From the NCBI GenBank assembly GCA_905178155.1, contig CAJINV010000003.1, forward strand, positions 618,720 to 682,719: a stretch of 64,000 bases of DNA, read 5' to 3'. This DNA comes from Amoebophrya sp. A120. Taxonomy: Eukaryota; Protista; Dinoflagellata. This document shows positions 3,001-6,000 of this stretch, piece after piece. How positions within the stretch are numbered: position 1 is the first letter of the stretch; each line of letters begins with the position of its first letter. The position numbers were made by a program, and so were the translations under genes. Under the pieces are notes generated by a model. It saw only the letters and a list, made by a program, of their open reading frames with translations, did no database searches and was not told where the DNA came from.

Positions 3001-6000
3001 TTTTGATATGGGGTGGGGGGATTTTTCATTTTGATAAAACTTGGAGTTCCAGGTGGTCCAGAAGCACAATCGGGCTCTGGACCAAATGCAAAGCGGCAGT
3101 TCTTTGGAGGAGCAGACGAAATTACAGCTTGGACGGTCGTTAGAAATCATTGTGACGAATTTCGTGCGAATTTGTAGGGCGAAGACCCGCGACCGCGACG
3201 CGGCCTTGGCATTGGGGTCGGACTTGGGATTCTGCGTTGCAAACGCATCTACGACGCCCCGCTCGTATTCCGCGGCTTTTTATTGGTGTCCCGACGAGGA
3301 GGGGCAAAGCCAGCAAAATCTTCCCACGCCGGGCGCCTTCATCTATGCCCGAGTTTTGGGCCCAGTGGCTGCACTAATGCGCCCTACCTGCACTAATACG
3401 CTGCACTAATGCTGCCCGAGTTTTGGGACGCCGTGGCAGTTTCCAAAACGGCGCCTGTCGCGTCGAAGTCAAAGACTTCCCTCGATGGTGAGGCACGGGA
3501 AACGCAGCAAATTTCCTTGCGTCCCTCGGAAGGGCATGGGACCGGGAAAAGGGTGGCCAGGTGATTGGCCGCCAGACGTTGGCTTTTGGGTTTTTGCTGA
3601 AATTCGCTCGAAATTCGCACCTGCTCTTTCTAATGGGGGCCCAAGCTCTAAAGACGAAAGTGAATTCCTACAAAAACTTGGAGTTCTATGGATGTGTCAG
3701 AGTTGAAATCGACAAAGTTGAAATAGTTTGTGATGCATAAAATGTAGCCCACAAAGTGCCTGTCTTGCAGAGTAGGCAAGTGAGGCAGATTGTAAGCCTG
3801 TTGAGGGGTAGAAACTGAGCTGCTGAAGTAGCATGACAAAAGCAGTCTTCTGTGCCCAAACAGCATGACAAATTGGATTCCGGTGCTCGGACAATTTGTC
3901 ATGCGCCACTTGAAAACTAGGCGCCAACTGGTACCCGTTTTATATATGCATCACAAATTATTTCAACTCTGACGATTTCGATCCTGACAGTTCCATAAGT
4001 TCCAAGTGGTCCAGAAGCACAATCGGGCCCTGGACCCGAACGCGCCGCCCCCCGTGTCCACTACGTTGTACGCGTACGGGGGAAGTTTAGGCTTAACGCG
4101 GGTCCTATGCATTGCAAAACTATCGTACTAGTAGAAATAGCATTTACAAATTTTTCCAGAAGGAAAAGTGAAATTTGTGATGCTGAATTAGCTAAGACGC
4201 CAAATCTGCCATGCTGTACTGCAATTACTACGAGTACGATACTTTTGCACAGGATATGTCCCGCTGGAATCCACACTCGCCCACCTGCAGAACTCCGGCG
4301 ACCGCATTGTCCGTGTGGAGGGAATATGCATTGCAAATATTTCTGGGTCTGGAAGGTTGAAACTCGTGATGCCAACTGTGGACTCTAAAAAAATCTGTAT
4401 TGCATGACTAGCACGAGGCGCCCAGTTTGTGCTACGGGGGAGGGCATTTGTCATGCGGGATAGGCATCAGGAAATATGTAATGCGGGCTAGAAATATGAG
4501 ATGCTAGATCATGCATTACAGACATCCTGAGTCATGCAAAATATGCATGACAAACCTGGCAACCTTCCAGCCCCAGACATTTTTGCATTTGATAGGGCAC
4601 GTGTCTGACCCCCGCGTGCTCCTTCATTTTGAAGGAGATGACGCGGACGAGCGGCCGGTTGGAGGACGCCTTGCTGAAGGCGGTCGCCGCGGGTCTGCTT
4701 ACTCCGCCCTCCTCCGGCGGGGGCGCGACTAAGACGCTGACGACGAATAATAGCTCCTGCAATTCCTCGCCGGTCTCCTCCCCGTATGGAAGCTGCACAA
4801 CTACTTCCGGCGACAAGATTGTCGTTGAGCATCTTCCCTCCAGGGCGTCCCGCTCCCGACTTTTCGTCGAGGAGTTCATGAAGAACTGCAGCAAAGGCGA
4901 CGACGAGAATGTCATGTCTTCGACGACTTGCTCACCAGGGGGTGGAATCAACAAGGCCCTACAACTCGGTGGAGGCGCGCAGCATGCGCATCAAAATCTA
5001 GTGACGCAGCGATCCGTCACGTCGGATGTCGCGGGCTACGGCTCGCCGAACACCTACGCAGAGTGGCGCCAGTACAACCATGATCAGTTTTTGAAAACAA
5101 AAGACAATAGTTGCGCGGGCGGGGCATCGCAACAGGAACATGAGGACCTTGTGCAACACGCACTTGGAAATGAAGCAAAAGCAGGTAAAGGCAACGAAAC
5201 TGCTAAAAACGGAGTAGAAAAAACACCCGTGGATCAGGTGCAGAGTGGGCAAGATGGAGGAAATACTGCAGATCACAACAAGGATGTTGACGCCAGCACA
5301 GCGAGCACCTTGGTGCAGCAGACACCTTTGCAAGTCGCACATCCCACACCATCGACTGCCGACGTGTCCCCGGTGAATCTTCCAGAAGGTAAAAATCCGG
5401 GTCGGAGTATGAAGGGAGGTCAAGAAATCAACACCTCTCCGCACCAGCAGCAGGTCAACGCATTGGAAAAGGTTTCGGCTTCGACCATTCAACTCGTCCG
5501 CACCTTCGCCGCGGAATTGAGTGGCGAGGTCGCGGTTTCTCGATTAGTCACGCTCGCGCGCCGCATCGGGGCCACGTCCCAAGAGGACGTGATCTGCGAG
5601 CCGTTCCTGCCCGCCCACGGCACGGATGAACAGATCGCTGCCGCGGTGTTAATTCTGGAAGAAAAGATTCAAAAAGCGAGCGCTTCCAATTGCTCCTATC
5701 GCTACCTGGCCTCGTTGAAGCGGTCAGGACGGGCGGCCAAGTGCGCGATTCGCCTAGTTGCGTTCACGAACAACGACGTGATCAATGTGGAGCACCTCCA
5801 GAGTCCGGTTTCATCTTTTAGCACCACAGCAGCTGCAAATAACACGGCGGCGCACGGTGCGACGGTGCATCAAACTCGGCACCAGCCTGGAGATCAACAT
5901 CTACCTCCATCTTCCGCGACCAAGATGGAGCAACGCAGCATTTCCGAGAGCAAAGTCGGAAGCGCGAACGTACAGGAGCGGGGAATGCTGGACCACCACG

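Follow-up and report, generated by a model that had tools for sequence, protein, structure and literature searches.

The question raised by this locus is where Amoebophrya sp. A120 cuts its RNA when an element flanked by an 8-bp target site duplication (TSD) lies within a coding exon, amid introners that carry 5-bp repeats. The introners of Amoebophrya are described, in the passages devoted to them by Farhat et al. (2021, PMC7789003), as non-canonical introns with an inverted repeat (IR) and a direct repeat (DR) that form hairpins and carry no transposase; the same passages put non-canonical introns at more than 60% of introns, report that U1 was not detected and leave open how such introns are removed. 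All coordinates given here are those of the window, the whole 64,000-nucleotide stretch of A120 DNA that was analysed, which begins within the host gene.

1..6167, + strand: host gene for an aspartokinase with a degenerate homoserine dehydrogenase, 3' part, coding for residues 249-1535 of the deposited protein P0001
2665..3083, + strand: copy 1 of a tandem duplication in the host gene, interrupted by introner A
3088..4036, + strand: copy 2 of the tandem duplication, interrupted by element B and introner C

The exons of the window correspond to the deposited protein P0001 (1535 aa), which has Pfam matches to AA_kinase, ACT and, weakly, HSDH (Homoserine_dh, E 8e-5 over 52 of 173 profile positions), with many of its relatives carrying the name AK-HSDH. 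The homoserine dehydrogenase half (2100-6167, residues 800-1535) looks degenerate, with long low-complexity insertions that break it. The closest relative of P0001 is found in Amoebophrya sp. A25 at 46% identity, and the A25 orthologue has a longer, unrelated insertion where the A120 gene has its repeat. The copies of the 95-nt duplication are identical in 89 of 95 columns, the differences being three substitutions and one 3-nt gap. It is apparent that this one unit, over 2665-4036, has taken three independent insertions with terminal inverted repeats (TIRs), A in copy 1 and both B and C in copy 2.

3122..3651, + strand: element B, a MITE-like TIR element of 530 bp that runs from TTA to TAA, with GAATTT subterminal repeats and TIRs that extend, imperfectly, to about 54 bp
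3114..3121, + strand: left 8-bp TSD of B, exonic, AGACGAAA
3652..3659, + strand: right 8-bp TSD of B, AGACGAAA, the last 3 nt of which (3657-3659) probably remain in the mRNA, where they add one codon for Lys
2688..2695, + strand: paralogous target site in copy 1 of the repeat, empty, with AGACGAAA present once
3407..3409, + strand: in-frame TAA met if B is retained, preceded by 95 B-encoded codons

The initial annotation had placed a 530-bp element with a perfect 8-bp TSD inside the AK-HSDH coding sequence, and this is confirmed, with the empty site supplied by the other copy of the repeat. As the upstream copy has the target octamer once, the 8-bp repeat at B is a true TSD and B was inserted after the duplication. 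When flanking repeats of 2-14 bp were tested only a length of 8 matched exactly, and the imperfect TIRs pair at 10 of 12 and 19 of 25 terminal bases. An 8-bp repeat combined with a TIR of at least 19/25 occurs in two cases in the window and in none in each of 20 Markov shuffles. RNA folding predictions also pair the two ends of B with each other (z -2.19, with 4 of 100 shuffles equally good), and stops interrupt the three frames of its + strand, the longest open stretch being 95 codons. A PIF/Harbinger reading, in which TTA/TAA would be a 3-bp TSD, was rejected because the two triplets form an inverted and not a direct repeat, and other copies keep them. B, whose insertion duplicated 8 bp of the target, appears to be a non-autonomous TIR transposon; it lies in the duplicated linker of the aspartokinase gene, and the evidence supports its being distinct in kind from the TAT..ATA introners. 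Its insertion may have been tolerated because of its position in a variable linker downstream of the kinase and ACT domains, and its cost is probably low, as the linker is variable and a truncated product would retain both domains.

The TAT..ATA introners provide the comparison by which the removal of B can be judged. Of four runs aligned to 1-6300, X10 and X11, both of raw reads, gave 0 reads; X1 and X4 are the basis of what follows, their label as RNA being a guess in both cases, yet two GT-AG introns are removed in each.

2715..3036, + strand: TAT..ATA introner A, 5-bp TSD, removal implied by contig ends and P0001
3687..3997, + strand: TAT..ATA introner C, 5-bp TSD, joint 3681>3998 in X1 and X4
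4325..4594, + strand: TAT..ATA introner E, mismatched TSD, joint 4323>4599, cut register (-1,+4) or (0,+5) relative to the TIR ends

There are 18 TAT..ATA elements with 5-bp flanking repeats in the window (12 perfect, six with one mismatch), and these fit the description of A120 introners in the relevant passages of PMC7789003. Four of the six that have a mismatch differ at the first position of the TSD (4106, 9430, 13771 and 27353). Five TAT joints are found in both X1 and X4 (441>673, 2266>2423, 3681>3998, 4101>4258 and 4323>4599), and all five TAT..ATA joints among those listed remove the element plus 5 nt. Because two of the five have mismatched TSDs, the registers that they have in common are exactly (-1,+4) and (0,+5), with the register of the class narrowed mainly by the single element E. 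Upstream of 4599 the contigs comprise 193 letters, neither more nor fewer than 66+104+23, so nothing lies between the joints, although three of the five had been marked as not known in this respect.

Much of the RNA of X1 retains B. The bin 841-1050 has a depth of 38.8, equal to the exon share alone (75/210 x 108.7), and the contribution of DNA is therefore negligible. Contigs 3036-3548 (depth 49.1) and 3519-3681 (depth 48.1) traverse both boundaries of B with 0 differences, at 33-45% of the depth of the exon contigs (108.7 and 148.7). When the retained form is simulated as a graph at k=31, the upstream contig measures 2025 letters, counted from position 1, and the loop 660, and X1 matches this exactly, with an upstream contig of 2025 and a loop of 527+163-30=660; any mixture containing an exact 3121>3660 excision gives a simulated upstream contig of 2014. 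The residual 55-67% of X1 depth could be made up of transcripts with one repeat unit, of loss over a structured region or of an excised form removed in graph cleaning. As the X1 contig is unbroken over the left boundary of B, excision in X1 is either minor or lost in that cleaning, Logan contigs being simplified graphs from which short contigs may go unreported. The initial annotation had held that B behaves as an intron and had named its retention in transcripts as evidence to the contrary; contigs that read through B are what X1 contains, so what stands of that claim is that some of the RNA probably loses B, and clean intron behaviour does not stand.

3122..3656, + strand: probable intron, B plus 5 nt (535 nt, ends TT..CG), as indicated by P0001, the X4 contig ends and the TAT registers

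Three indirect lines suggest that the removal of B probably takes the element and a further 5 nt (3122-3656), so that one extra Lys is left behind. At B the deposited protein has T-K-K-V, which exceeds by one Lys what the empty site or an exact excision would give; at those neighbouring junctions that were compared, the protein and the RNA contigs are in agreement. In the range scanned only two cut pairs give T-K-K-V, (3120,3656) and (3121,3657), both of which remove 535 nt; they represent the registers (-1,+4), with ends AT..AC, and (0,+5), with ends TT..CG, the same two that the TAT joints have in common. The upstream contig of X4 extends to 7 letters beyond 2715, and the downstream contig begins at 3659. 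In the simulation, exact excision puts the upstream end at -9 relative to 2715, retention at +2, (-1,+4) at +6 and (0,+5) at +7. When 961 cut pairs were simulated 25 gave both X4 ends, four of them in frame, and a single one yields the deposited peptide, 3121>3657, for which the simulated junction contig is 130 letters. Published splice-motif tables were left out of the fixing of registers, since a direct repeat allows an aligner to shift the joint.

The same X4 ends are reproduced equally by two partial paths in which B is not excised, and X4 is shallow (exon depth 7-16), with contigs that also break elsewhere at low depth (427/418, 1201/1197). No joint for B is among the 15 listed of the 24 RNA joints, no contig or read was seen across a B junction, and a protein search for shorter fragments bearing the junction returned 0 of 194 candidates. 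P0001 and X4 may not be independent of each other; the published Amoebophrya annotation is transcript-based, without ab initio prediction. In X4 no locus-identical contig covers 3151-3198, 3241-3345 or 3462-3471, the depth there coming from divergent copies of the family, and the depth of 4.62 at 3151-3360 was rejected as a sign that B is retained, since a divergent copy accounts for all of it. Such copies are seen in the RNA contigs as X4 record 8, with 14 differences and 3 gaps over 3199-3389, and further at 3462-3571 in X4 and 3549-3571 in X1.

It could be argued that B is not spliced as a unit at all and that productive mRNA arises by skipping one repeat unit, the duplicated segment in full, the rest of the RNA retaining B. 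Long-range splicing that joins 28-nt direct repeats might produce such a skip, or else some of the culture might carry a DNA deletion, and the extra Lys of the deposited model would then be an artefact or a rare product. The X1 contigs fit 'retained' or 'retained + one-unit' exactly, with the loop at 33-45% of exon depth, and the one-unit form is in frame, yet it is not directly visible with 31-mers, the +7/23 ends of X4 need two extra partial paths, and the deposited junction on the element+5 register of the TAT class is left unexplained. This is considered unlikely.

The remaining alternatives concern the cut itself. B could be cut at its chance AT..AC pair (intron 3121-3655) by splicing that depends on sequence and is unrelated to any measuring from the hairpin, which also yields T-K-K-V and uses one of the two registers common to the TAT class. 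The upstream end in X4 would however be +6 where +7 is seen, minor-spliceosome snRNAs are reported absent in A25 and A120 in the passages of PMC7789003 that treat them, and in TAT elements the same register gives unrelated ends, such as TT..GT, CT..TT and AT..GC. The idea is an improbable one. An exact excision that takes one whole 8-bp TSD and restores the original exon (3121>3660), the junction proposed in the initial annotation, would be in frame, restore the peptide of the empty site and, if rare, could vanish in contig cleaning. It nevertheless predicts a break at 2715-9 in any mixture, a point that both X1 (+2) and X4 (+7) pass, and the deposited protein has the extra Lys, which makes it very improbable indeed.

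The reading that is preferred, with a probability of roughly 0.6, is that hairpin-ended insertions are cut where the left TIR starts, at its first base, and again 5 nt beyond the right TIR, the test case of this rule being one single insertion, B. The part of the RNA that does not retain B would then lose it by the cut that is used for the TAT-ended introners of the host. Where the TSD is 5 bp such a cut would restore the exon exactly, and with the 8-bp TSD of B it would leave 3 nt, adding one Lys while the frame survives. Recognition is presumably by way of the terminal hairpin, with machinery that may be shared with the TAT introners, and the imperfect TIRs of B might make for a weaker and inefficient removal.

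How far B resembles published introners can be judged from the criteria in the introner passages of PMC7789003, namely an inverted repeat of 8-20 nt at the intron ends, a DR of 3-5 nt, DRs of 3-8 nt having been surveyed, a junction supported by RNA-seq reads and membership of a repeated family. On the junction, the X4 contig ends and P0001 speak indirectly for B, and its retention in X1 speaks against. B has the inverted repeat, with 10/12 and 19/25 terminal bases paired, and belongs to a repeated family by its divergent copies in the RNA contigs, but its DR of 8 bp is longer than the typical 3-5. The same passages give an IR start of TAT in A120 and of TTA followed by two purines in A25, where the commonest motifs are TT-NN; the right end of B (TTA-GA) fits the A25 start, whereas the left end (TTA-CA) does not, and neither is TAT. 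B thus differs from the introners as described there in its TTA ends amid TAT-type introners, in the 3 nt likely left behind and in its heavy retention in one sample. The legend of Fig. S23 in PMC7789003 places IRs '1-5' nt (A120) and '1-6' nt (A25) from splice sites, a geometry that may partly anticipate the offset at which B is cut. Annotated non-canonical ends of A120 are mostly NT (5') and AN (3') in those published tables that list them, and this dominance may come less from true diversity than from aligners that slide to GT/CT and AG/AC inside the direct repeat.

That the host may splice out TIR elements of more than one superfamily, as the initial annotation inferred, has already been published for A120, and the formation of introns by several superfamilies in Amoebophrya is not new. 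In the parts of Gozashti et al. (2025, PMC12130899) that concern A120, introners are derived from diverse TIR, LTR and non-LTR elements and some add amino acids. The family table (sd07) includes fam38, a TA-ended Ginger with a 5-bp TSD, and in row 590 fam65, a Mutator with an 8-9-bp TSD, GG/CC ends, a length of about 627 bp, four copies and MuDR homology. Like B, fam65 is a TIR element with an 8-9-bp TSD in Amoebophrya, and it acts as an intron, but B, at 530 bp with TT/AA ends, lacks termini of the fam65 type. Among the 58 A120 rows of sd07, most of which give no termini, no row notes TT/AA ends. In the sections of the Polarella glacialis preprint (bioRxiv 10.1101/2020.10.14.339549) that define its ILE classes, classes 6, 8 and 10 have an 8-nt TSD as B does, beside other TSD lengths; in these the element and the TSD supply spliceosomal G(T/C/A)-AG sites, in contrast to the ends TT..CG indicated for B. 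Non-autonomous elements are classed in Repbase by their TSD together with a terminal match to a known element, according to the classification passages of PMC4455052. The suggestion of a hAT or MULE identity had been drawn from the length of the TSD, which agrees with hAT and with fam65 alike, and it is not supported, the ends TT..AA fitting neither hAT nor the fam65 termini.

The termini of hAT elements are (C/T)A..T(A/G). MITEs of the hAT type share with B the 8-bp TSD, short TIRs and subterminal repeats, whereas the ends of B, fixed as TT..AA by the TSD and by other copies, miss these termini, and no transposase has been linked to B. B appears to work like an Amoebophrya introner, and its membership of hAT or MULE is not established.

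22461..22508, + strand: lone left end with the terminal motif of B, for which no right end or TSD was found
55146..56265, + strand: element of 1120 bp with B-related TIRs (54 bp, 85% identical to each other), an interior unrelated to B, no flush TSD and a rearranged right flank

The two relatives named in the initial annotation do carry the end of B, the terminal 15-mer recurring exactly at 22461 and 55146, but the likeness is limited to the first 23-26 bp and neither has a flush 8-bp TSD, the 8-bp left flank not being repeated downstream at either. Judged from the ORFs listed, an intergenic location of both copies is plausible. Canonical-looking GT..AG segments lie at 54463-55145, just upstream of the 55146 element, which may therefore sit in a transcript. 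A near-perfect palindrome of about 60 bp follows its right end (55136-56315), and the 8-mer at 55136 recurs at 56286, which suggests that an original 8-bp TSD was displaced by a fold-back rearrangement of the flank. Metagenome matches to the 22-nt terminus were set aside as chance, there being two loci in the same bacterial-looking coding sequence without a second TIR.

Five near-identical palindromes of about 40 bp (cores 7107, 7542, 7784, 8009 and 8441) lie over 7095-8480 between modules of 225-435 bp, two of which are alike, and the whole looks like a head-to-tail array of TIR elements with common target sites. A short, near-perfect inverted repeat at 56575-56740 (23 of 25 pairs) forms a small MITE-like palindrome, and the end of the window (63450-64000) consists of low-complexity short tandem repeats. 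A candidate element with a 7-bp DR at 30485-30929 was rejected as it falls inside one continuous ORF, which we take to be an RCC1-like sequence.

What is new here is a natural test, which suggests a fixed-offset, sequence-blind cut and not an excision that restores the target site. For introners with a 5-bp TSD a rule of 'element + one direct repeat' and a fixed offset from the hairpin lead to the same mRNA and are indistinguishable, whereas an insertion with an 8-bp TSD separates the two, and the present evidence favours the fixed offset. In the literature covered, to which subscription journals mostly do not belong, no paper was found on retention or on a TSD-independent fixed cut in Amoebophrya. 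A fixed offset would argue against template switching by reverse transcriptase, for which one would expect all 8 bp of the repeat to be used, and the cut rule is checkable across the genome with existing RNA-seq. More tentatively, and with some doubt, the ruler might be wholly blind to sequence, measuring from the first base of the hairpin to 5 nt past its last base whatever the superfamily or TSD of the element. If this were true, coding exons would keep only insertions with TSDs of 2, 5, 8 or 11 bp, each of those with 8 bp adding one codon, and the removal of imperfect hairpins would vary by sample or life stage, thereby switching between truncated and full-length protein.
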